A DNA stretch of 64,000 nucleotides from a virus (IMGVR_UViG_3300048581_000044:1-64000); one strand, 5' to 3'. Numbered from the stretch's first letter, positions 8,351 to 61,158 are shown. Notes: a model not told the origin generated them from the letters alone. A program made the numbers and translations.

Positions 8351-9184
8351 TTAAGCCTTATCCACGATCTCCGTGCCATTAAGCGTTAACGCGCCTGTCT
8401 TAGCAGCGTTCCCAATCTCTCGCACCTTGCCGCTGTCTTCCAAAGCCGCCTCGCTTGTCTCATCGGCGATCACCGCTTCGAAGCTCCCCTCAATCGCGGG
8501 GATTCCAGCCGCCGAGACTCCTTTCAGCCCTTTTGTAACGCTCGCAACGGCGCCCGCGACGATTGTGGCAAAAACATCACGCATTGCTTGTGCATTTTCA
8601 TTCTCTTGGTCATTTATGTCCAAAACCTTGCCATATTCTAACGGTGCGGTTGCTTTGAGTTTAAAAATCCCAACATTAGCTTTCACGGAGGTTAATTTTA
8701 CGTCATTTAGCTTCGTTTCGAGGCACAAAACCCTCTTGTTGGCACCAATCTTGCATGATTCGTCAAACTCGGGGTAGCGTGCGCGCCATTTCGTGATGGT
8801 TTCGGCCGTTACGCCAATGTGACCGGCGAATGCGGTTAGGGAATAATCGTTCGCCATGAATTCCGAAACCATGGTGATGTATTCGGGGCGAAAGATCGAG
8901 GGCGCCCCGACCGGGAGGACTGGGGGGAGGATGTAGGTCTTTGCGACGGGGGGTTTTGGTTTGGATTCTTTCGAATCAACCAAGGAAGCTGCGATTTCTT
9001 GAGAGGTTTGGAGGCTTGGCTTAGGGTCGAGCGAAGGAACGACTTGGAGCGGCTTAGGGAAGGTCGAGGGAGGGGGAATCATGGGCGGGAGGGGGTTTAT
9101 CATGGCGAAGGAGAGGATAAGGCGGGAGGTGGGAGGGAGGCAAGAGGGGTTATGTGAGGAGGGGGATGGTTGCAGATTAGACAC
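8351..9184 (-). CDS. terS: Terminase small subunit-like HTH protein with Pro-rich N-terminus
   Basis: GAPSIFRPEY...DYSLTAFAGHIGVTAETITKWRARYPEFDESCKIG resembles TerS HTH domains. Confidence 0.65.
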   Translation of the reverse strand: MSNLQPSPSSHNPSCLPPTSRLILSFAMINPLPPMIPPPSTFPKPLQVVPSLDPKPSLQTSQEIAASLVDSKESKPKPPVAKTYILPPVLPVGAPSIFRPEYITMVSEFMANDYSLTAFAGHIGVTAETITKWRARYPEFDESCKIGANKRVLCLETKLNDVKLTSVKANVGIFKLKATAPLEYGKVLDINDQENENAQAMRDVFATIVAGAVASVTKGLKGVSAAGIPAIEGSFEAVIADETSEAALEDSGKVREIGNAAKTGALTLNGTEIVDKA

Positions 9185-32800: not shown

Positions 32801-34015
32801 ATGGACATTATGCTTTCAGCCGAACAATCCCTCGCGCTAGACGCAATTGGCGAATGGCTGCAAAACCGTAGCAAGCCTTTCTTTATTCTTCACGGGCCCG
32901 CCGGGACCGGCAAAACCACGGTTGGAAAGTACATCGCGGCACTCCATAACGGCCCTACATATCATATGGCATTTACTGGCAAAGCCGTACAGGTCATGTG
33001 TTCCAAGGGCATGAACGCTAAAACCATCCATGGCTCTATTTATCTCCCAACAGCCGAGCGTCAAGAAGAAGCGCAAGGGCTTGAAACCGAACTTGCCCAA
33101 CTTGCGGCAAAGGAATCCAGAACCCAAGCCGACGAAAAGCGTGAACACAAAATCCGCAAGCGCTTAGAAGAGCTTTATCAGCCCGATTTCGTCCTCCGCC
33201 CCGTCTCTCCCTTTGAACGTAACGGCCTTATCATCTGTGATGAGGTCTCTATGGTCTCGGCGCGTGAAGCTAACGATCTTCTCTCTTTCGGCCTTCCTGT
33301 CCTCGTTCTTGGCGATCCTGGCCAGCTTCCCCCAATCGAAGGCCAAGGGTTTTTCAACCGCAATCCCGACTTCTTCTTGCGCGAAATCCATCGCCAAGCT
33401 CTTGAATCCCCAATCATCCGCCTCGCCATGCTTGCGCGTGAAGGCAAGCCTTTGCCTTTTGGGAAATATGGCGAGTCCTCTGTTATCCACGCCCGAGACA
33501 TCACGAAGGAAGTTGCGCTTAGGGCGACTCAAATCATCACAGGATCGAACAAGGCGCGAATCAACTTCAACAATGAAATCCGCCAGCTCCGCGGCTTCTC
33601 TAGCCGTTACCCGCTCGAAGGTGAGCAAGTGATGTGCCTTCGTAATAACAAGGCTATCGGTATCTTCAACGGCCAGACGTTCGATGTTAAGGCCGATACA
33701 GTTGACGATGATTCAAACCCTGATCTTTATATCAGGCTCTCGTTAGAGTCCGAAGGATTCCTCGACCCTAGCGTCAAAGTCCATCGCGAGTGCTTTCATG
33801 ACATCGATAAGCTCAAGTCATGGCCTTACAAGCGGCGGTCTTATGCTAATGAGTTCACATTTTCATATGCATGTACCGTGCATAAATTCCAAGGCTCGCA
33901 AACGCCTCGTGTGTTGCTTTATCCTGATTTGTTTAAGTGGGATCGGGAGAAATACGCACAACTCACGTACACAGGAATAACCAGAGCGGTTGATTCAGTG
34001 GACATCGCGCTATGA
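32801..34015 (+). CDS. SF1B Dda/RecD-like DNA helicase
   Basis: GPAGTGKTT, CDEVSMV, GDPGQLPP, YACTVHKFQGSQ, YTGITRA. Confidence 0.92.
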   Translation: MDIMLSAEQSLALDAIGEWLQNRSKPFFILHGPAGTGKTTVGKYIAALHNGPTYHMAFTGKAVQVMCSKGMNAKTIHGSIYLPTAERQEEAQGLETELAQLAAKESRTQADEKREHKIRKRLEELYQPDFVLRPVSPFERNGLIICDEVSMVSAREANDLLSFGLPVLVLGDPGQLPPIEGQGFFNRNPDFFLREIHRQALESPIIRLAMLAREGKPLPFGKYGESSVIHARDITKEVALRATQIITGSNKARINFNNEIRQLRGFSSRYPLEGEQVMCLRNNKAIGIFNGQTFDVKADTVDDDSNPDLYIRLSLESEGFLDPSVKVHRECFHDIDKLKSWPYKRRSYANEFTFSYACTVHKFQGSQTPRVLLYPDLFKWDREKYAQLTYTGITRAVDSVDIAL

Positions 34016-34386
34016 CACAGAGCCCCCGACCTTCTTACGTAAAAAAGCGTCTCGTAGTTCTTGAATCACCTTATGCTGGTGACATCGAACGCAACACTGC
34101 CTACGCGCGTGCCTGTGTGAACGACTGCGTTCATCGCGGTGAAGCTGTCCAGGTGTCACATCTTTTATACACTTTGCCCGGAATTCTAAACGACAACTCC
34201 CCAGAAGAACGCCAGCTTGGCATGGAATGCGGCTGGGCTTGGATGCGTGTCGCTGAAGCTGTTGTCGTCTATAGCGACTTTGGGATCAGTCCCGGCATGG
34301 CTTTAGGGATAACACACGCCCTAAGCCTTGGCCTGCTTATCGAATATCGAGTCCTCTCTGACAAGCTTTGGGCACCATTCAAATGA
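34012..34386 (+). CDS. Nucleoside 2-deoxyribosyltransferase-like protein
   Basis: VVLESPYAGDIERN...SHLLY...EAVVVY...ISPGM. Confidence 0.7.
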   Translation: MTQSPRPSYVKKRLVVLESPYAGDIERNTAYARACVNDCVHRGEAVQVSHLLYTLPGILNDNSPEERQLGMECGWAWMRVAEAVVVYSDFGISPGMALGITHALSLGLLIEYRVLSDKLWAPFK

Positions 34387-37656: not shown

Positions 37657-38110
37657 AGAGAAGGCTTTTTTTGAAGAAGCTCTTCAACATGTAGCACGTT
37701 CCCAAGCTGCGCTAGCCGCAAATTCTGAATCGAACAATGAGCCTGCAACACCTATAGCTATTACGCTTCCGCGTGAACAGCTCATTGCCTCCGCCAAAGA
37801 ACTCATCTGCACCGACCGCAATTACTCCTACGGCGATCCGATGGAGAACTTTGGCGTCGTAGCAGCGTTGAAGGCTACTTTCTGGAGGGCCATACAGCGT
37901 TCAAAAAACACAGCCCTTGTTGAATGGCGTCCGGCAATCCATTCGCAAAATAGCGCCTTCGGTCACGCTATCGACATGATCCTCCTCAACCTCGCGCGTC
38001 TCGCTACCTCTCCTAAGAGCGTCTACGAGAAAGATCGCTTTCTCGACTTGATTGGCTATTCCGCCCTAGCTGGAGAAATCGTTGAGCGTGTCCGCGCCGA
38101 AAAGCCCTAA
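37574..38110 (+). CDS. DUF6378-like protein
   Basis: DRNYSYGDPMENF...MILLNLAR...DLIGYSAL. Confidence 0.75.
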   Translation: MKQAKKVTVTRRVIRSKRSAKKVFHKNEEKAFFEEALQHVARSQAALAANSESNNEPATPIAITLPREQLIASAKELICTDRNYSYGDPMENFGVVAALKATFWRAIQRSKNTALVEWRPAIHSQNSAFGHAIDMILLNLARLATSPKSVYEKDRFLDLIGYSALAGEIVERVRAEKP

Positions 38111-38115
38111 CTACA

Positions 38116-38487
38116 ATGAACATCCCACATGTCAAAATCGAGCGTCGTGTCTTCCACCCGATCAACGCCTGCCCTCCACCCTTCCCTCAAGCCCATCCGC
38201 TTGTGCATTTCATTTATGTCCAAATGCTCAACGAGCGGATGTCACGAGCCGAGGTAGCGCGTAGGGCAGGCTTAGCCGTCGCTACAATGATTTCTTGGTG
38301 GAAGGCGCCAAACAAAAAAGGAAAAGGCGGCATTGCGATCCAAAATCTCGAAGCCGCCCTTGGCGTGTTTGGTTACGCTTTAAAACCCACCCCGCTCCAA
38401 GATCAAACCATCGCTCCGCCTAAGCGCAAGCGCAAAACCGGTCCTCAAAAGAATTTCACGCTTATCCCTTTGGAGAAGCTTCCTTGA
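38116..38487 (+). CDS. XRE-type HTH protein
   Basis: MSRAEVARRAGLAVATMISWW...NLEAALGVFG. Confidence 0.7.
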   Translation: MNIPHVKIERRVFHPINACPPPFPQAHPLVHFIYVQMLNERMSRAEVARRAGLAVATMISWWKAPNKKGKGGIAIQNLEAALGVFGYALKPTPLQDQTIAPPKRKRKTGPQKNFTLIPLEKLP

Positions 38488-40250
38488 CAACCGAATACGA
38501 AGACGGCTCAGACGATGCGCCTATTTGTCTCTTGGGAGAAGCACCGTCTTTTGTCGAGATGAAAGAGCACAAGCCCTTTGTCGGCCCGGCTGGTGAAATC
38601 CTCGAACGTTGTATGCACTCAGCTGGAATCCCTCGACGTAACTGTCGAATCCTAAACGTCTTCGAAACCCCAATCGTCAAGCCGAAAATCTCCAAAGGCA
38701 AAATCTTCAACCGTGACGGGGAGCTTCTCTGGGCTCCTGGCAAAGGCTTTACCGAAGCAGGCCACGCTGCCACAGCTTCCTCTCTCATGCGCCTTCGTCG
38801 CACGACTTCTAACGTTATCGTCCCTATGGGTGGGGTTGCCTTAACCCTCGCTCTCGAAGCGCGTTCGATTACAAAATGGCGTGGCTCAATTATCCCAGGC
38901 GGTGAGCAAATCAACCACCGCAAGATTGTCCCTACAATCCACCCTTCTGCTGTCCTGCAAGGCAAATATGAATACCGCTATCTCATTATCAACGACCTCA
39001 AGCGCGCCAAGCGTGAGAGCGCTTATCCTGACATCCGCCCGATCAAGCGCAATTTAATCATCGATCCCACTTATGAGCAGTGCATTTCTTTTCTCGAAAA
39101 ATGTCTAGACGCCAAGCTTGTCAACACCGACATTGAGCTTCTTCATGGGCACATGGATTGCTTCTCTCTCGCTATCGATCCCTTAGAAGCCATCTCAATC
39201 CCAATCGTCGATGCGACGTTTGAAAGCCGCTGGAGCCCAGAAGAAGAGCTTAAAATCTTCCAACTCTACGCTCAGATCATCGGCGCACCCCATATTGCTA
39301 AGGTTAACCAAAACATCACCTTCGATTTAGCGACTCTCCTTCAGCTTTACAGAATCGTCCCTCGTGGTGTTGTCCATGATCCTATGGTCGCACATTCGAT
39401 TATGTATACGACTTTGGATAAAAGCCTGGGGCTGATTTGTTCTATGCACGCCGAAGAGCCTTATTACAAGGACGACGGGCAGCTTCACGACTCCCCAACC
39501 GTGGCGGATTTTACCCGTCGCTGGGAATACAATGCGAAAGACTCTGCGATCTCGTTAGAAAGCTGGCTTGCCTTAGAACCCTCTATCGATCCAGAAGGCT
39601 ATCGTGCTACCTACGACATGACGATAAACGTTGTTTCATCGCTTATTTACATGATGGCGCATGGGATTCCTGTTAACGCTAAGGCTCTGATCGCTACACG
39701 CGAGGAAGCAAACGCACAACTAATCGCAATTGTTGAGCGCTTGAGAAAGAGCTTTAACCGACCGATTCTCACAGAGGCCCCTAAACGTGCGGCTGATAAG
39801 CGTGCGGCTATTGCGGCTAACGCTATCAACATCAACTCTCCCGCACAGCTTTGCGCTTATTTCTATGGTGAAAAAGGCTTGCGTCCTTATAAAAACATGG
39901 CAGGCGCCCCAACTGTTGATGACAAGGCACTCACGCGAATCGCTTCACGCTTCAGCTTGGAAGAAGCTCGAACACTCCAAGAATATCGCAAGATCGATAA
40001 GATCATCTCGACTTATTTGAACGTCCGCTATGACGTGGATGGAAAGCTAAGAAGCTCGTTTAATATCCGGGGAGCTTGGACAGGGCGGTTAAGTTCGTCG
40101 CAGACTGTGTTTGAGACAGGCTTGAACTTCCAAAACCTCCCGATTGTGTTCCGGCAATTTATGGAGGGGGAGGGTGTTGAGGCACATCCGCATTTGGAAG
40201 AAATTATGAAAATCCCTGAAAGCCAACTCGAATGGAATCCCGAACCATGA
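38484..40250 (+). CDS. polA: Family A DNA polymerase N-terminal half: UDG-like domain + 3'-5' exonuclease + thumb
   Basis: UDG: GEAPS, FVGPAG, HPS. Exo: NTDIE, NQNITFD, YNAKD. Ends GRLSSS...NFQNLP before motif A. Confidence 0.9.
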   Translation: MTTEYEDGSDDAPICLLGEAPSFVEMKEHKPFVGPAGEILERCMHSAGIPRRNCRILNVFETPIVKPKISKGKIFNRDGELLWAPGKGFTEAGHAATASSLMRLRRTTSNVIVPMGGVALTLALEARSITKWRGSIIPGGEQINHRKIVPTIHPSAVLQGKYEYRYLIINDLKRAKRESAYPDIRPIKRNLIIDPTYEQCISFLEKCLDAKLVNTDIELLHGHMDCFSLAIDPLEAISIPIVDATFESRWSPEEELKIFQLYAQIIGAPHIAKVNQNITFDLATLLQLYRIVPRGVVHDPMVAHSIMYTTLDKSLGLICSMHAEEPYYKDDGQLHDSPTVADFTRRWEYNAKDSAISLESWLALEPSIDPEGYRATYDMTINVVSSLIYMMAHGIPVNAKALIATREEANAQLIAIVERLRKSFNRPILTEAPKRAADKRAAIAANAININSPAQLCAYFYGEKGLRPYKNMAGAPTVDDKALTRIASRFSLEEARTLQEYRKIDKIISTYLNVRYDVDGKLRSSFNIRGAWTGRLSSSQTVFETGLNFQNLPIVFRQFMEGEGVEAHPHLEEIMKIPESQLEWNPEP

Positions 40251-40534
40251 AAACCTTTCTTATCTCTGCCCTAACTTGCTTCCCAAGCTTCAACTCCCCT
40301 ACCGAAGATATGGGCCATCGTGCAGCAATCGTTGCAGCAAATTCGCAACAAGAAGCTATCGGGATTTTTGTGCTGGATGCTTTTAAAAGCAGCCCCTGTG
40401 CAATCACTGATGTGAACGCTTCCGAGCTTGGGGATGACGGTGTTCCGGGCTTTAAGCGCGTTGTGGAAGAAGTTATGAAGCCTATCCCCCTTGAAGACGC
40501 GCATGGAGAGCTGCCAGCCGAAAGCCATTCCTAA
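40247..40534 (+). CDS. Small hypothetical protein inside the split polymerase
   Basis: ATGA overlap with the Pol-N stop; TAATG overlap with the next gene. Confidence 0.6.
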   Translation: MKTFLISALTCFPSFNSPTEDMGHRAAIVAANSQQEAIGIFVLDAFKSSPCAITDVNASELGDDGVPGFKRVVEEVMKPIPLEDAHGELPAESHS

Positions 40535-41112
40535 TGCACGACACAGCGCGCGAACTCGGCAAGCTCTTCCTCAGCCTCTACCATTCCCCCTCTTGTACAA
40601 CCATCCTCGACTTTGGCGCCATGAACATCAACGGCACCTTGCGCGACTACTGCCCACCCGGCGTGACCTATCTTGGCGTTGATCTCTCCCCCGGCCCGGA
40701 CGTTGATCTAACGCTCGACGCCTTCAATTCCCTCCGCTACCCTTCCACCCGCTACGACCTCATCCTCGCAACTTCCGTCTTTGAGCACGACGCCCTTTTC
40801 TGGAACACCTTTACCGAACTCTGTTCCCTCCTCTCGCTCCAGGGCGCCCTTTATCTCAACGTCCCCTCAGACGGCAAAGTCCACCGCCACCCGCTTGACT
40901 GCTGGCGCTTCTACCCTGACGCGGGCTTGGCGCTTCAGCGTTGGAGCGTGCTTGCAGGCTGTCCTGTGAGGCTTATTGAGAGCTTTGTTGCGAATCAAGG
41001 AGGCGAGGGCTGGAGCGATTTTGTTGCTGTCTTTTCCCCTAGCGCGCTGATGCCTAGATTGGCGAACGCTTATGGCATGAGAAATCTAACACATTACCAA
41101 ACTGGACAATGA
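40534..41112 (+). CDS. Class I SAM-dependent methyltransferase (type-11/sugar-cluster-like)
   Basis: ILDFGAMNINGTLR, GVDL..GPDVD, SVFEH, HRHPLDCWRFYPD. Confidence 0.85.
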   Translation: MHDTARELGKLFLSLYHSPSCTTILDFGAMNINGTLRDYCPPGVTYLGVDLSPGPDVDLTLDAFNSLRYPSTRYDLILATSVFEHDALFWNTFTELCSLLSLQGALYLNVPSDGKVHRHPLDCWRFYPDAGLALQRWSVLAGCPVRLIESFVANQGGEGWSDFVAVFSPSALMPRLANAYGMRNLTHYQTGQ

Positions 41113-41115
41113 TTC

Positions 41116-43005
41116 ATGCTTCTTAACTTTGACCTTTCGGGTGCCGAGTGGAACGTGGTCGCTTATCTTTCCCAAGACCCAGGGATGCAAGCTGTTGTGC
41201 GCTCTGGGAAGTCTCCCCACATTGTCACGGGGGCCAAGATCAGCGGGCTACCTGAAGACGTTGTAAAGAAAGAAGCGTCAATTATCGGCGACCTGAATGA
41301 CCCAATTCATATCTCAGAGCTTCGGCAGACAGAGCTTAAAGGACTTTTGGACGGTGCTAAGTTCCTGCCGCGCACGATGTCTATTCGTCAAGCCGGTAAG
41401 AAGTGCCTTGTAGCTGGAACAGAAGTTCTCACACCTGAAGGTTGGGTAAAGATAGAGGATGTAAAGCAAGGCGATAAAGTCCTACAATGGGATGCTGGAG
41501 AGCTTAGCTTTGTAGAGACAAGCGCTATTTATAAATATGCTCTAGCTCCAGCTGAGGAGCTTATAGCTTTAAAAGGCCGACATTTTAGCCAGACTGTGAC
41601 AGCAAACCACCGCTTGCCACTAAAGCATTTGAAAAAATACTTCTTCGAAGAATGTACCGCCGCCACACTGCCTGAAAACTGTACGTATGGCATACCGTTA
41701 TCTGGAAACCTAAACAATAAAACAAGCCTATTAAACGCCTACGAGACACGCTTACTTGTCGCTATTCAAGCAGACGGCGTTATCAACCCCTACGGACAGG
41801 TAGTGTTCAAATTTGCAAAGGAAAGAAAACGCGATAGGCTTGATAGTATTTTAAGCGCTCTCGGAATCAGCGTAACGATCACTAAGGGAAACCAGTTTCA
41901 CATCCCACGCGGTCCTATAATTGACAAGCTTGTGAAGTTGCTAACAGGTGGTTTTGTCTACGAACGTCAGGAACGCCACGCTGTAAAAACCCTTCGTCAT
42001 GGAGCGCTTTTAAAAAATTACGGCCTTTATCTTTTACAGCTTGGTATTACAGAACTACAAGCTTTTGTTAATGAGCAACAATTCTGGGACGGGCACAACC
42101 GAAATGGTGGTGCTTGCTTTCAGGCTTTTACGACAAACAAGAACAACGCTGACTGGATACAGACCATAAGTCATCTGTGTGGGTGTCGTTGTACTTTAAT
42201 AAGTCGCGAACCAACTGGGGGATTTGGAAAAAAGACTCTTCATTGGTTGAGCATTGGAAAGGCTGACACTACCACAACCTCAGTGCTAAAACGTAGTAGC
42301 GTAAAGGCCGATAGCGTTTACTGTTTGACAGTTCCAAGTGGATTCTTCATGGTTAGATATGAAAGTATCATAAGTATAAGCGGTAATAGCAATCACTCGC
42401 TGAACTACAGACTTGGTTATCGAACATTCGCACAGCGCAATGAAATGGATGAAAAGGAAGCGCAAAAGATCGTAAATCTATACCGCGGTGAACGCATCGG
42501 GTCAACTATCCGCGGTGGTGCCTACCCCGAGCTAAATCACTGGTACGACCGGATCGATGAGCAAATCCGCAAGACCCGTACCATGACAAACTGCTTTGGG
42601 CGGAAGATGTATTTCATGGGCCAAATGGGCGATGATCTCTTTCGAGAAGCCACCGCGGCCGTCCCGCAGTCAACCGTCGTGGATATCACCAATCGTGCGA
42701 TGCCTTTGATGCTTAATGACAGCTCTCCAGCTTTTGAGCCTGCGAAATTGCTCGCACAGGTTCACGATTCAACACTTATCGATTATGTCTCGATGGAATT
42801 TCACGCCATGGCGCGGTTTGTTATAAAAATGGGACTCGATTATCTTAGCCCAACGCTCGATTATGGCGAGCCTTTTAAGCTTGGCGTTGATCTTAAAGCG
42901 GGTGTTAATTGGGGCGAGAGTATGAAAAAGATAGACATGACTCCTGATGAAGATGTCATGGCTGAACGCTTAAAACTATGTTGGAAAGCTTTTAGCCTCA
43001 TGTGA
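41116..43005 (+). CDS. polA: Family A DNA polymerase C-terminal half (motifs A, B, C), intein-containing
   Basis: Motif A NFDLSGAE; spliced motif B RQAGKK|SNHSLNY; motif C QVHDS. Confidence 0.92.
   Translation: MLLNFDLSGAEWNVVAYLSQDPGMQAVVRSGKSPHIVTGAKISGLPEDVVKKEASIIGDLNDPIHISELRQTELKGLLDGAKFLPRTMSIRQAGKKCLVAGTEVLTPEGWVKIEDVKQGDKVLQWDAGELSFVETSAIYKYALAPAEELIALKGRHFSQTVTANHRLPLKHLKKYFFEECTAATLPENCTYGIPLSGNLNNKTSLLNAYETRLLVAIQADGVINPYGQVVFKFAKERKRDRLDSILSALGISVTITKGNQFHIPRGPIIDKLVKLLTGGFVYERQERHAVKTLRHGALLKNYGLYLLQLGITELQAFVNEQQFWDGHNRNGGACFQAFTTNKNNADWIQTISHLCGCRCTLISREPTGGFGKKTLHWLSIGKADTTTTSVLKRSSVKADSVYCLTVPSGFFMVRYESIISISGNSNHSLNYRLGYRTFAQRNEMDEKEAQKIVNLYRGERIGSTIRGGAYPELNHWYDRIDEQIRKTRTMTNCFGRKMYFMGQMGDDLFREATAAVPQSTVVDITNRAMPLMLNDSSPAFEPAKLLAQVHDSTLIDYVSMEFHAMARFVIKMGLDYLSPTLDYGEPFKLGVDLKAGVNWGESMKKIDMTPDEDVMAERLKLCWKAFSLM
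41404..42387 (+). mobile_element. 328-aa intein with LAGLIDADG homing endonuclease
   Basis: CLVAGTEVLTPEG...VTANH...LLVAIQADG...FWDG...YCLTVPSGFFMVR...ISGN|S. Confidence 0.9.
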
Positions 43006-43251
43006 TAGCATCTGTCACCGCCTCAAGCAGCCATTTCGTTTCGATTCGGTTGGCGCTGGCGTTGATCTGGAGAAAGGAACTGAGGGATGATCCTGGGTCA
43101 CTCATGTCATTTTCCTTCCGGTTGCGGCGCGCTCGCCAGAGCGGTCACAAACTCCTGCGCCCTGGATACCATGTCACCGACGCTGCTCATGACTTACCTC
43201 TACGTTTGTACTGCGAATATGGCTGAGGGCAACCCCCGAACAGCGCATCCA

Positions 43252-43518
43252 CTATTGCTTTTTTACAGGTTCCTGGTCAGATATTTGAGCACTGTATTGC
43301 GCCATTAGTTCAGTGTATAGATTCGTAATACCAGCCCGATTCGCGTCGGCAAGGGTGATCCTACCCACACCGTCGAGAATAATAGCAGCATCAGATCGTT
43401 TCATTTTCAGTGTAATGACCTGATCGGCTCTTGGACGCGGTTGTGGAACAAGTATATCGGCAGAAAATGCAGGTACTATGACCATCAGTATGAAGGCCAC
43501 GCAATACGCTTTTTTCAT
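43252..43518 (-). CDS. Signal-peptide protein resembling small fibre-associated chaperones
   Basis: MKKAYCVAFILMVIVPAFSA-D leader; helical C-terminus ITLKMKRSDAAIILDGVG. Confidence 0.55.
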   Translation of the reverse strand: MKKAYCVAFILMVIVPAFSADILVPQPRPRADQVITLKMKRSDAAIILDGVGRITLADANRAGITNLYTELMAQYSAQISDQEPVKKQ

Positions 43519-58638: not shown

Positions 58639-59505
58639 TTACACCTCATCATGTGCCCAGAGCAGATACTCGTTTTCCAAGTCTTCCAGAACCGTAGGGA
58701 GTTTAAGCTCAAACGTCTCACAAAAGGTCTTGTTGGAAAGAACGCTATAAGCCGGACGCGGATTAGCCAACGTTCCAGTTCGCACGTTAGCTCCAGAAAC
58801 AGCTTCATATAAAGAAAGCGCCTTCAAAGCAAAAAAGTCTTTCCAGACAGGCTCCCAAGTCACGAGATTGTACAGTCCCCCAAGCGGCTGCTTGGACTTG
58901 TTAACAAATTCCAAAGCTTCAAACATCTTGTGTGCAATGAGGCGTGTTGAGGTTGGTGTCGTAAGCTGTTTCAAGACTTTGATCGGGTTTTCAACTGTCC
59001 CTTTGCCAGCACGATACTGCTTAATAGCGTCTAGCGATCCGCACATGTCAGCACTATCGTAAATAGAAGACAGCCGGAAGATAAAATGTTCCGGCGCCCG
59101 CAAAGCCAAAATCGCTTGTTCTCCGCAGTATTTAGAAATGCCATAGACTCCCCAAGGAACACCTGTCGAGGGTGTGAGTTTGTTAGAGCAACAGGCGTAA
59201 TCAGTAGAGAAATGAACGAACGAGGCTTGGCAATCGCGTGCCCCAAGAGCCATTTCTAACGGGGCAAGCGTGTTGAGGAGAAAAGCTTCTTCAGGATCAG
59301 CTACACACTGTTCCAAGCCATTCTTAGCCGAACAGTTAATCACGAGATCAGGGTTGTATTCTGAAACGAAACCGCGGATTTGAGGAGAATAGCTCAGGTC
59401 AAGGTCTTCCCGACTCACACCACTGACCTTATGGCCGTGCGCTCCAAACTCTTCAACAATACGCTTCCCAAGCCGTCCTTTGGCGCCAAAAACCAAAACG
59501 TGCAT
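58639..59505 (-). CDS. rmlD: dTDP-4-dehydrorhamnose reductase-like SDR
   Basis: GAKGRLG, INCSA, HFSTDY, YGISK. ATG 59505. Confidence 0.85.
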   Translation of the reverse strand: MHVLVFGAKGRLGKRIVEEFGAHGHKVSGVSREDLDLSYSPQIRGFVSEYNPDLVINCSAKNGLEQCVADPEEAFLLNTLAPLEMALGARDCQASFVHFSTDYACCSNKLTPSTGVPWGVYGISKYCGEQAILALRAPEHFIFRLSSIYDSADMCGSLDAIKQYRAGKGTVENPIKVLKQLTTPTSTRLIAHKMFEALEFVNKSKQPLGGLYNLVTWEPVWKDFFALKALSLYEAVSGANVRTGTLANPRPAYSVLSNKTFCETFELKLPTVLEDLENEYLLWAHDEV

Positions 59506-59509
59506 TTCC

Positions 59510-60067
59510 CTACTCCCAAGGCTCAGCTTCAGACAGCAACGGCGTAACGCGGTCTTTCGCCGATAGCACCACCTGCGCGCCAATCCCCATCGGCCATTGA
59601 ATCCCAATCACCGGGTCATCCCAACGCACCGCGCGTTCTAGCTCTTGGCTGTAATAAGCTGTCATGTCGTAATGAACAACCGCACCTTGCTCGAAGGCGA
59701 AAAAGCCATTAGCAAACCCAGGTGGCACCCAGACTGATTCGTTAGCCACGCCGTCGAGAACAACCCCAGCCCACGTTCCGAAATTTGGCGAACCAGCTCG
59801 TACATCAACAGAGACTTGGAAAATCTTTCCTGAAATGCAACGGAGGAGCTTACCCTGCATAGGCCGTCCAAGCTGATAATGCAGCCCTCTTAGCGTAAAC
59901 GGCACAGAGACGGAGAAATTGGACTGGACGAATTCCAAGCCAGTCGTCAAGTCCATGTATTCATTCGAACGCCTAGCGTCGAGAAAGAACCCGCGGTGGT
60001 CTCGGTAAAGGCGCTCAGGGGTAATGACTGTAACGCCGCCTGGGTGGATAAGCCTTGTGCGTAGCAT
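59510..60067 (-). CDS. rmlC: dTDP-4-dehydrorhamnose 3,5-epimerase-like cupin
   Basis: DHRGFF, LRGLHYQ, QGKL, VPPGFANGF, RWDDP.IGIQWP. ATG 60067. Confidence 0.88.
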   Translation of the reverse strand: MLRTRLIHPGGVTVITPERLYRDHRGFFLDARRSNEYMDLTTGLEFVQSNFSVSVPFTLRGLHYQLGRPMQGKLLRCISGKIFQVSVDVRAGSPNFGTWAGVVLDGVANESVWVPPGFANGFFAFEQGAVVHYDMTAYYSQELERAVRWDDPVIGIQWPMGIGAQVVLSAKDRVTPLLSEAEPWE

Positions 60068-60168
60068 TTCCCAAATCCCTCTCGCTAAGACGTTGTCTGT
60101 TGTGAGGCAATATGGTAGCAAATTCGTCCTTTGTCAAACAACGGCTATGGCTAAAAAGCGAGGAAACC

Positions 60169-61158
60169 ATGAGAGTTTTAATAGTTGGCGGCGCTGGCTT
60201 CATCGGTTCAGTGCTCGCTCCCGTGCTGCTTGCACGAGGGCATGAGGTTACGGTTTTCGACCTCTTCTGGTTTGGAGATCATCTGCCGAAAGCTGTCAAG
60301 AAGCAAAAAGTCAACGCTGGCGCGCTCAAGGCCGAAGACCTTAAGCCTTTTGACGCTGTGATTTTCCTCGCCGGGCTCTCCAACGATCCTATGGCCGATA
60401 CGGCGCCTTTCTCTAATTACGTTTTTAACGCTGCACTCCCAAGCTATCTAGCCTATATTGCACGGCAGGCAGGCGTTAAGCTTTTCATTCATGGCGGCTC
60501 GTGCTCTGTGTATGGGCGAACGGAAGAACGTGTTCGCGAAGACAGCCAGCCTCAGACTTTCTCGCCGTATGGCGTCTCTAAGCTTATCGCCGAAACAGGG
60601 ATTATCCAGCAGTATTGCCACGAGATGCGTGTCGTCCTCTTCCGCATGGGGACAGTCTGCGGCCCGAGTCCTCGAATGCGTTACGACCTTCTGCTTAACG
60701 CTATGGTCAAGGACGCAATCAAAAAACAAACCATCTCCGTCTTTGACAACATGGCCGAACGCCCAATCTTAGACATCGATAGCGCTTGCATTGCGTATGC
60801 GAATGCGCTGGAGGATAAAAAGGTCGTTGGGATTTACAATCTTCTCTCGTTCAACCTTGGCGTCTCATTTGCCGCCGATGCAGTGCAAAAACGCGTCTTT
60901 GCCAAAACGCGCACACTTCCTAAAATCGTTTATCAAGGCGGGACGGACATCCGCAGCTATTCGGTCAATGACGGTCGGGCACAGCGTGCTAACTTGTCTT
61001 TTGAGACGCTCCCAACAGCCACAATCGATAAAATCATTGATGGCGTGTTAGCTTCGACCGCTGACTTAGAGTCCTCAGCGTATCACAACATCAAACGTTT
61101 TAAGGAGTTGGTGGCGACTGAGTTCCCTGTGCTGTCAGGTACAGGTTGTCCAGCGTAA
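60169..61158 (+). CDS. NAD-dependent nucleotide-sugar epimerase/dehydratase (extended SDR)
   Basis: GGAGFIGS, FLAGLSNDP, SCSVYG, YGVSK. AGGA RBS before ATG 60169. Confidence 0.88.
   Translation: MRVLIVGGAGFIGSVLAPVLLARGHEVTVFDLFWFGDHLPKAVKKQKVNAGALKAEDLKPFDAVIFLAGLSNDPMADTAPFSNYVFNAALPSYLAYIARQAGVKLFIHGGSCSVYGRTEERVREDSQPQTFSPYGVSKLIAETGIIQQYCHEMRVVLFRMGTVCGPSPRMRYDLLLNAMVKDAIKKQTISVFDNMAERPILDIDSACIAYANALEDKKVVGIYNLLSFNLGVSFAADAVQKRVFAKTRTLPKIVYQGGTDIRSYSVNDGRAQRANLSFETLPTATIDKIIDGVLASTADLESSAYHNIKRFKELVATEFPVLSGTGCPA

Follow-up and report, generated by a model that had tools for sequence, protein, structure and literature searches.

Here, we describe a split gene for a family A DNA polymerase in an uncultured peat phage that is known from a single-contig virus record of 89,137 bp (IMGVR_UViG_3300048581_000044). 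The analyzed window is the first 64 kb of this record (64,000 nucleotides). We suggest, with a probability of about 0.8, that the single family A replicative polymerase of this phage is made as two chains that assemble non-covalently, that the junction between their genes collects accessory genes and that one chain contains an intein which has to be spliced out. Comparison with related sequences indicates that the split is probably an inherited working arrangement of a known type and not a broken gene. The genes of the two chains, denominated Pol-N and Pol-C, enclose two cargo genes, namely a small open reading frame (ORF95) and a gene for an S-adenosylmethionine (SAM)-dependent methyltransferase. 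The features in question are listed below (aa, amino acids; UDG, uracil-DNA glycosylase; GC, fraction of guanine and cytosine).

38484-40250, plus strand: Pol-N, 588 aa, with a UDG-like domain, a 3'-5' exonuclease and the N-terminal portion of a family A polymerase, which extends to the strand preceding motif A
38502-38993, plus strand: UDG-like (family 4-like) domain of Pol-N, aa 7-170, GEAPS ... HPS (Pfam PF03167, E 1.3e-16 to 9.4e-18)
39246-39548, plus strand: match to a 3'-5' exonuclease domain in Pol-N, aa 255-355 (Pfam PF01612, DNA_pol_A_exo1, 6.4e-5, slightly below the cut-off)
40176-40250, plus strand: 24-aa non-polymerase tail of Pol-N (VEAHPH...NPEP), part of the insert
40247-40534, plus strand: ORF95, cargo gene 1, a small acidic protein; its ATG overlaps the Pol-N TGA as ATGA
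40534-41112, plus strand: cargo gene 2, a class I SAM-dependent methyltransferase of 192 aa; its ATG overlaps the ORF95 TAA as TAATG, and its TGA is at 41110-41112
41116-43005, plus strand: Pol-C precursor, 629 aa, with motif A, the intein and motifs B and C (Pfam DNA_pol_A and Hint_2)
41116-41403, plus strand: Pol-C extein 1, aa 1-96, with the motif A strand DLSGAEW and the first half of motif B (RQAGKK); profile positions 154-205
41404-42387, plus strand: intein of 328 aa, Pol-C residues 97-424, inside motif B; Cys1 ... Gly-Asn with Ser at +1 and a central endonuclease-like region; GC 0.434
42388-43005, plus strand: Pol-C extein 2, aa 425-629, with the second part of motif B (SNHSLNY.LGY) followed by motif C (QVHDS); DNA_pol_A 2.5e-11, profile positions 214-381

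An original prediction, made from the nucleotide sequence of the window, had already described the order Pol-N, ORF95, methyltransferase and Pol-C together with the ATGA and TAATG overlaps and the frame shared by the last two genes, and all of these are present. It had missed the 328-aa intein in Pol-C and the UDG-like domain at the N-terminus of Pol-N. Both halves match the Pfam family DNA_pol_A above its cut-off: Pol-N with 1.3e-12 over profile positions 16-133, and Pol-C with 4.5e-15 over positions 214-381 in its last 205 residues, to which positions 154-205 are added by its first 53 residues. In alignments with unsplit relatives the homology breaks off after ...FRQFMEGEG (nt 40175) and resumes before (M)LLNFDLSGAEW (nt 41116), so that an insert of ~940 nt (40176-41115) separates the two polymerase blocks. 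The NFQNLP motif lies ~40 codons upstream of the Pol-N stop, and the 24-aa tail of Pol-N has no counterpart in split or unsplit relatives. Pol-C begins exactly at motif A, and relatives can be aligned to its exteins from the first residue on.

A search of 5.8 billion proteins with Pol-N yielded 708 homologues, and the best 120 of them (38-62% identity) all have the length of the N-terminal half (442-621 aa). While a scan of viral contigs with the single Pol-N sequence gave no match, scans based on alignments, run over collections of viruses, metagenomes and genomes, supplied ~160 loci, a set that does not include the contigs of P0002-P0057 (48-62% identity). The closest inspected loci have 53-56% identity and comprise L110 and L004 with the full gap and L088, whose contig lacks the downstream sequence. 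In the ~160 loci, all relatives with a Pol-N identity of at least ~37% are split at the same residue (62 distinct sequences), which argues against a break by chance. In most of them Pol-N stops 2-6 codons past F(K/R)xF(L/I)V.D and Pol-C starts with x(L/I)xEFD(K/L)AGAEW. More distant relatives, among them three named phages (Desulfofustis phage LS06-2018-MD01, Microcystis phage Mel-JY34 and isolate ctMlz233), possess a single ORF in which a 6-residue bridge connects the two parts. When 113 distinct sequences of Pol-N were placed in a FastTree phylogeny, all 62 split forms fell on one side of a single branch (one state change, support 86), and none of 500 label shuffles reached equally few state changes. 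These data are consistent with a single origin of the split but do not prove it strongly. The break would have arisen once in the ancestor of a large clade of uncultured phages. Following the model of Dassa et al. discussed below, it may have resulted from a frameshift or from a mobile gene that invaded and provided both stop and start; this part of the scenario is speculative.

One split relative differs from all others. In L038 (positions 8562-8640 of IMGVR_UViG_3300038379_000584) no cargo is present and the two halves overlap: Pol-N ends with ...FLVPDAIRTN and a stop, and the ATG of Pol-C lies within GATGCA and is followed by MQSVLIEVDL. Removal of one base would produce an ordinary unsplit bridge. 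This sequence forms a long branch close to the base of the split clade; it could be explained by an assembly error, by programmed frameshifting or as a proto-split form.

The C-terminal half has its own start, as is typical of a naturally split polymerase. In the window the ATG stands at the homology boundary, and a strong Shine-Dalgarno (SD) sequence with ATG, GTG or TTG directly precedes Pol-C in L005 (GAGGAGGAG-N7-GTG), L013, L026, L035 and others. The catalytic residues of motif A (Asp and Glu in DLSGAE), motif B (Lys and Tyr) and motif C (His-Asp) are conserved in 46 distinct split Pol-C sequences, and no second polymerase (PolA, PolB or DnaE) was found in the ~95%-complete record. The settled two-chain PolA that had been proposed originally is thus supported by a split that is clade-wide down to ~37% identity, by independent Pol-C starts in several relatives, by the conserved motifs and by its being the sole polymerase found. 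If the locus were instead a pseudogene that resulted from a recent insertion, the phage would have to use the polymerase of its host. Restriction of this cargo to one lineage and the GC of the methyltransferase (0.572, compared with 0.522 for the genome), which differs from its flanks, would fit such an event. However, the break is ancient and common to all 62 distinct sequences, the two halves are intact ORFs that have remained adjacent, co-oriented and coupled, and the surrounding replication module (Dda-like helicase, Sak4, exonuclease) is intact as well. Thus we consider a pseudogene extremely improbable.

A further question is whether RNA splicing restores one continuous polymerase message, the 940-nt insert then being an ORF-carrying self-splicing intron of group I or II. 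Group I introns occur at at least three sites of phage PolA genes (PMC3428280), and the authors who described the split PolA of the OM43 phages MEP401 and MEP402 (Zobellviridae) raised this explanation and left the choice between an intron and a split gene undecided (PMC10580990). An in-frame stop shortly past the break fits either model. The known introns of phage PolA genes (SPO1, Bastille, the T7-like phiI/W31, Pf-WMP3 and phiL7) likewise interrupt conserved regions and carry ORFs, but they are ribozymes that undergo splicing and whose ORFs encode HNH endonucleases, whereas the gap described here is entirely coding and contains no detectable ribozyme. Rfam models gave no intron match at E<=1 either in the window (38000-43500) or in the loci of eight relatives, in agreement with the original prediction, in which no group I intron core had been spotted, and the fully coding insert leaves no space for a ribozyme core. 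In a survey of about 50 distinct split loci the gaps measure from 171 to 2660 nt and most of them are at least 90% plus-strand coding. The shortest (171-233 nt) are each filled by one ORF, the gap sequences are unrelated between sub-clades, and the overlapping halves of L038 leave no room for an insert at all. Together with the strong SD sequences and starts before Pol-C in relatives, this makes an intron very unlikely.

The two halves could also be rejoined at the protein level, either by a split intein as in the so-called fractured genes or by recoding (UGA read-through or frameshifting). Fractured phage genes in which split inteins flank an inserted gene do exist (PMC2677866), this polymerase family hosts inteins, and a single UGA separates the methyltransferase from Pol-C in the same frame (CAA TGA TTC ATG at 41116), which the original prediction had taken as an opportunity for a read-through fusion. 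Such a read-through would join the methyltransferase, and not Pol-N, to Pol-C. Moreover, cargo and frame differ between relatives and the frame relation of the window recurs in none of them, so that the common frame can be regarded as a one-in-three coincidence; the proposed fusion is not supported. Neither half leaves space for intein fragments, since in most relatives Pol-N runs on for just 2-6 residues past the break and the first residues of Pol-C already belong to the motif A strand, and there is no Cys, Ser or Thr nucleophile at the junction. Finally, Pol-N and Pol-C are 865 nt and two complete genes apart. Any rejoining of the two halves is therefore most improbable. The comparison with fractured genes is nevertheless instructive. 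Dassa et al. (2009) described their breaking as mediated by endonucleases, and their model allows that an intein-less gene is fractured (PMC2677866). In both cases the gene is broken in place, order and orientation are kept and foreign ORFs supply the stop and the start. Unlike the fractured genes, the locus presented here has no split-intein halves and no recognizable homing endonuclease in the gap, its cargo being ORF95 and the methyltransferase.

Our preferred reading of two separate chains was also inspected at the level of structure. In the AlphaFold2 model of the unsplit relative L044 (864 aa; mean pLDDT 88.7 and 97 in the relevant block) the break maps to the turn 544-547, which lies between the strand 542-543 and the motif A strand 548-554 with the invariant Asp554 at its end. 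The chain is thus predicted to be cut in a hairpin turn of the palm, and this four-residue β-hairpin turn before the motif A strand would tolerate a chain break. Such a tolerance would explain that the same point is broken also in the unrelated phage MEP401 (OP830906). There gp13 ends with ...NLQNFDGEIKTLFLSRYGE (...LFLSRYGE), a 77-aa ORF follows and gp15 starts with MILNADAKALEW at motif A. Similar to the arrangement in the window, MEP401 has a family A polymerase as two adjacent co-oriented ORFs with a small ORF of unassigned family between them. It differs in having neither a UDG-like domain nor an intein and in its cargo, which is a single 77-aa ORF unrelated to ORF95, and BLASTP revealed no significant similarity between Pol-N and the N-terminal half of MEP401. 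The 'DNA polymerase part II' of LUZ24 was considered as a further split at the same site and rejected, as this polymerase is partitioned differently.

Precedents for working two-chain replicases are known from family B. The split PolB of PhiKZ (gp82 and gp50) forms a stable and active 1:1 complex of its two chains (PMC13648687), and in T4-like phages such as Aeh1 (gp43) the halves of a split PolB lie 2-3 kb apart, with a homing endonuclease gene possibly located in the space (PMC2677866). In all these phages a replicative polymerase is broken within the palm into two genes. They differ from the peat phage in polymerase family and break site, and the halves of PhiKZ are not adjacent. With PhiKZ as precedent, Pol-N and the spliced Pol-C may assemble non-covalently and thereby complete the palm sheet. 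In addition to its UDG-like domain, Pol-N would bring the proofreading exonuclease and the thumb together with the first elements of the palm, and Pol-C would contribute the motif A strand, the fingers with motif B, and motif C.

Concerning the N-terminal domains of Pol-N, the UDG-like domain reaches 65 bits against a cut-off of 24.3 for the Pfam UDG superfamily, but with 1.9e-14 and 53.8 bits it stays below the curated cut-off of 125.3 for the NCBIfam family UDG_fam4. The fusion of this domain with the polymerase is kept in both the split and the unsplit clades, and it may serve in uracil sensing, DNA binding or repair. A precomputed Pfam exonuclease domain is found in most relatives of Pol-N.

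The second peculiarity of this enzyme is the intein. It shows the pattern of class 1 with the start CLVAGTEV (C1), TANH in block B and the end ...SISGN followed by Ser, and it matches Hint_2 as well as the AceL NrdHF intein in the PDB (9e-4). In tblastn searches, inteins of Lak phages and those residing in primases and ribonucleotide reductases of phages were recovered. The insertion is precise: position 96 of extein 1 and position 1 of extein 2 adjoin in all intein-less relatives. Homologous inteins occupy the same site in the unsplit polymerases L059, L066 and L067 and all end with Gly-Asn/Ser. Intein-less relatives and same-site homologues together fix the boundaries. For a LAGLIDADG endonuclease no Pfam match was obtained within the intein at E<=1; the only hints of it are the sequence LLVAIQADG, recognized by eye, and full-length similarity to endonuclease-containing inteins. 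With the inteins of mycobacteriophage primase, phage ribonucleotide reductase and Lak phages it shares ~26-28% identity over ~320-380 residues, a span that takes in most of the intein, and like other inteins of phage replication proteins it starts with Cys1, ends with Asn and has a Hint block at either end. It is distinguished from them by its host site, motif B of PolA, and by a family-wide Gly-Asn instead of His-Asn end. Since motif B is complete only once the intein is removed (RQAGKK/intein/SNHSLNYRLGY), we infer that Pol-C excises it by splicing. As judged from its genes, the polymerase would thus require two post-translational steps before it can work, namely intein splicing and assembly of the heterodimer.

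A homologue of the window intein with 27% identity and a ...TGN/S end was detected at L149:7525-8451 (LDZT01007394.1) in a second site of an unsplit polymerase. This site (GKG/C...GN/SNMQNLP) lies within the conserved QNLP motif, ~18 residues before the break site. Its flanks resemble the motif B site (GKK/.../SNHS), which suggests ectopic transposition of the intein to a look-alike target.

As to the cargo, ORF95 could also start at the ATG at 40232, which would give a form of 100 aa with an isoelectric point of 4.6. It has no Pfam, PHROG or NCBIfam family, and leads from the Atlas are weak and all below 0.9 (YdfE_N with 0.87; a DUF4288-like fold with a TM-score of ~0.6). The methyltransferase matches Methyltransf_23 of Pfam with 1.8e-5, below the cut-off (25 versus 27 bits), and PHROG 32762 with 1.8e-13; NCBIfam has no family for it. 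Its 307 homologues belong mostly to Methyltransf_11 (PF08241), and many of them are located on bacterial contigs of megabase size with 45-55% identity. The homologue P0124 is 92% identical, its contig being outside the inspected loci. An AlphaFold2 model (pLDDT 84.8) shows the Rossmann methyltransferase fold, and all top Foldseek matches are SAM methyltransferases. The best fold matches are weak (TM-score 0.5-0.65, 12-20% identity) and comprise TDP-sugar C-methyltransferases (MtmC, KijD1 and TcaB9) and natural-product O-methyltransferases. By sequence, this enzyme appears to be of a bacterial small-molecule or sugar type and not a member of a DNA methyltransferase family. That it acts on sugars, together with the nucleotide-sugar genes of the phage at 58.6-61.2 kb, is a lead from structural models and nothing more. 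Neither cargo gene gave a tblastn match in any of the ~160 related loci, and a scan of viral contigs with the methyltransferase detected two distant viral loci only, neither of them at a polymerase break.

What the relatives carry in the same place is very diverse. Their gap ORFs are typically joined at distances of -11 to +14 nt, with stops and starts that overlap or nearly abut. The tight coupling noticed originally is thus a general property of gap ORFs across the split loci. A comparison of the cargo at this break in relatives, as suggested originally, showed that none of the ~50 split loci has ORF95 or the methyltransferase. Depending on the sub-clade the slot contains GH25 muramidases (Pfam 2e-29), Peptidase_M15_4, MazG-like proteins, a ThyX-like ORF, holin-like membrane proteins and many singletons, and a Pfam search of the small gap ORFs of relatives gave no families beyond GH25, PG_binding and Peptidase_M15_4. 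As the cargo varies and lysis or nucleotide genes stand at other loci where the peat phage has ORF95 and the methyltransferase, the slot gives the impression of a hot-spot for accessory genes. After the split the junction would have become an intergenic slot in which such genes come and go, ORF95 and the methyltransferase being the present occupants in the peat phage.

A family of acidic proteins of ~69-83 aa (about 72) with an isoelectric point of 4.1-5.1 and an acidic C-terminal tail is present in the inter-half slot at 14 loci of one sub-clade. It is listed for L005, L011-L019, L021, L092, L095, L101, L121 and L137, matches no Pfam family and could be a lineage-specific partner of the polymerase. 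Three other slot ORFs (L007:5570-5917, L010:8827-9216 and L132:2818-3078) share the motif C-x2-G-H ... C-x2-C and have no Pfam match. This motif is reminiscent of small phage nucleases of the HNH or zinc-ribbon type, and these ORFs may be what is left of the mobile gene by which the polymerase was originally broken.

According to the original prediction, the cargo is produced in fixed proportion with the replisome, and one may go further and regard ORF95 or the methyltransferase or both as polymerase subunits or as modifiers of nucleotides or DNA during synthesis. The tight coupling of the four genes, the presence of at least one small ORF in the slot of nearly all split relatives and the occurrence of other genes for DNA modification and sugars in this phage (a Mom-like gene and nucleotide-sugar enzymes) are compatible with such a role. 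On the other hand, in many loci the slot is occupied by lysis enzymes (GH25, Peptidase_M15) that have no relation to replication, and the gap of L110, the closest relative with context (53% identity), has just one unrelated 59-aa ORF. None of the cargo families occurs throughout, and the methyltransferase belongs to bacterial Methyltransf_11, which is not a family of DNA methyltransferases. A third subunit common to all split polymerases was no longer considered after hhalign had found no similarity of the F1 small-ORF profile to ORF95, MEP401 gp14 and seven other gap ORFs. We regard a replisome function of the cargo as unlikely, and the interpretation of the junction as a slot for exchangeable genes is retained.

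The four genes appear to be co-transcribed and translationally coupled, as inferred from their layout. They would be expressed from one transcript by stop/start coupling, and Pol-C must lose its 328-aa intein before the enzyme can work. A scan for promoters and terminators within 38484-43005 gave nothing above shuffled expectation.

The phage itself is contractile-tailed and baseplate genes are present. Its record has an estimated completeness of ~95% (CheckV). The replication module is located on the plus strand just upstream of the split polymerase and comprises an exonuclease, a Dda-like helicase, a nucleoside 2-deoxyribosyltransferase and a Sak4-like annealing protein. Along with the Mom-like gene, the nucleoside 2-deoxyribosyltransferase-like gene (34012-34386; PHROG 355, 5e-25) gives a hint that the DNA of this phage is modified. 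Genes for nucleotide-sugar enzymes (PHROG 540 matches) are located in the tail region at 58639-61158. The scan of genome collections returned only phage-sized contigs binned into unrelated metagenome-assembled genomes and gave no indication of a host. Public sequencing runs that contain the phage stem from peat, permafrost and bioreactor metagenomes. In one run a 50-kb contig, possibly the source assembly, spans the whole stretch with zero differences, and short contigs from two other studies bridge the junction of methyltransferase and Pol-C with identical sequence. No deletion joints were seen across the stretch in contigs of the sequencing runs; the parts left uncovered in runs X4-X6 carry no meaning.

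Several observations weigh against a two-chain, intein-containing polymerase of single origin. The junction of Pol-N and ORF95 is covered solely by the contig that may be identical with the source assembly. The branch that unites the split forms has moderate support and was obtained with FastTree alone, and the cargo-free arrangement of L038 could be a single-base sequencing error. In the window the SD sequence before Pol-C is weak (TGGAC), and its translation may therefore depend on coupling to the methyltransferase. Additionally, the penultimate residue of the intein is Gly instead of His, as it is in L059, L066, L067 and L149. A minority of active inteins lacks the penultimate His, and thus a Gly-Asn end does not exclude splicing.

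Phage polymerases that are split and have ORFs between their halves were known before, one of them a PolA with its break at the same site, and inteins had likewise been described in replication proteins of phages. What appears to be new is that the split defines a large clade of uncultured phages, that its junction is a hot-spot of gene turnover, that an unrelated lineage is broken at the same site and that a UDG-like fusion, a chain break and a motif B intein come together in one enzyme. Tentatively, and with considerable doubt, we propose a wider generalization: the hairpin turn before motif A would be a recurrent fracture point permitted by the structure (at least two lineages), and the junction a privileged slot whose cargo is translated in step with the replicase. 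If this were true, it would account for the fast exchange of genes for lysis, nucleotides and modification at this place, and a sugar-type methyltransferase, perhaps acting with the dTDP-sugar genes of the phage, would be coupled to the timing of replication. Genome papers usually leave two-gene phage polymerases unresolved between intron and split gene, and for one large clade the comparative data settle this question. The break offers a natural, evolution-tested split site for the engineering of two-piece family A polymerases and represents a defined case for how essential genes survive breakage.

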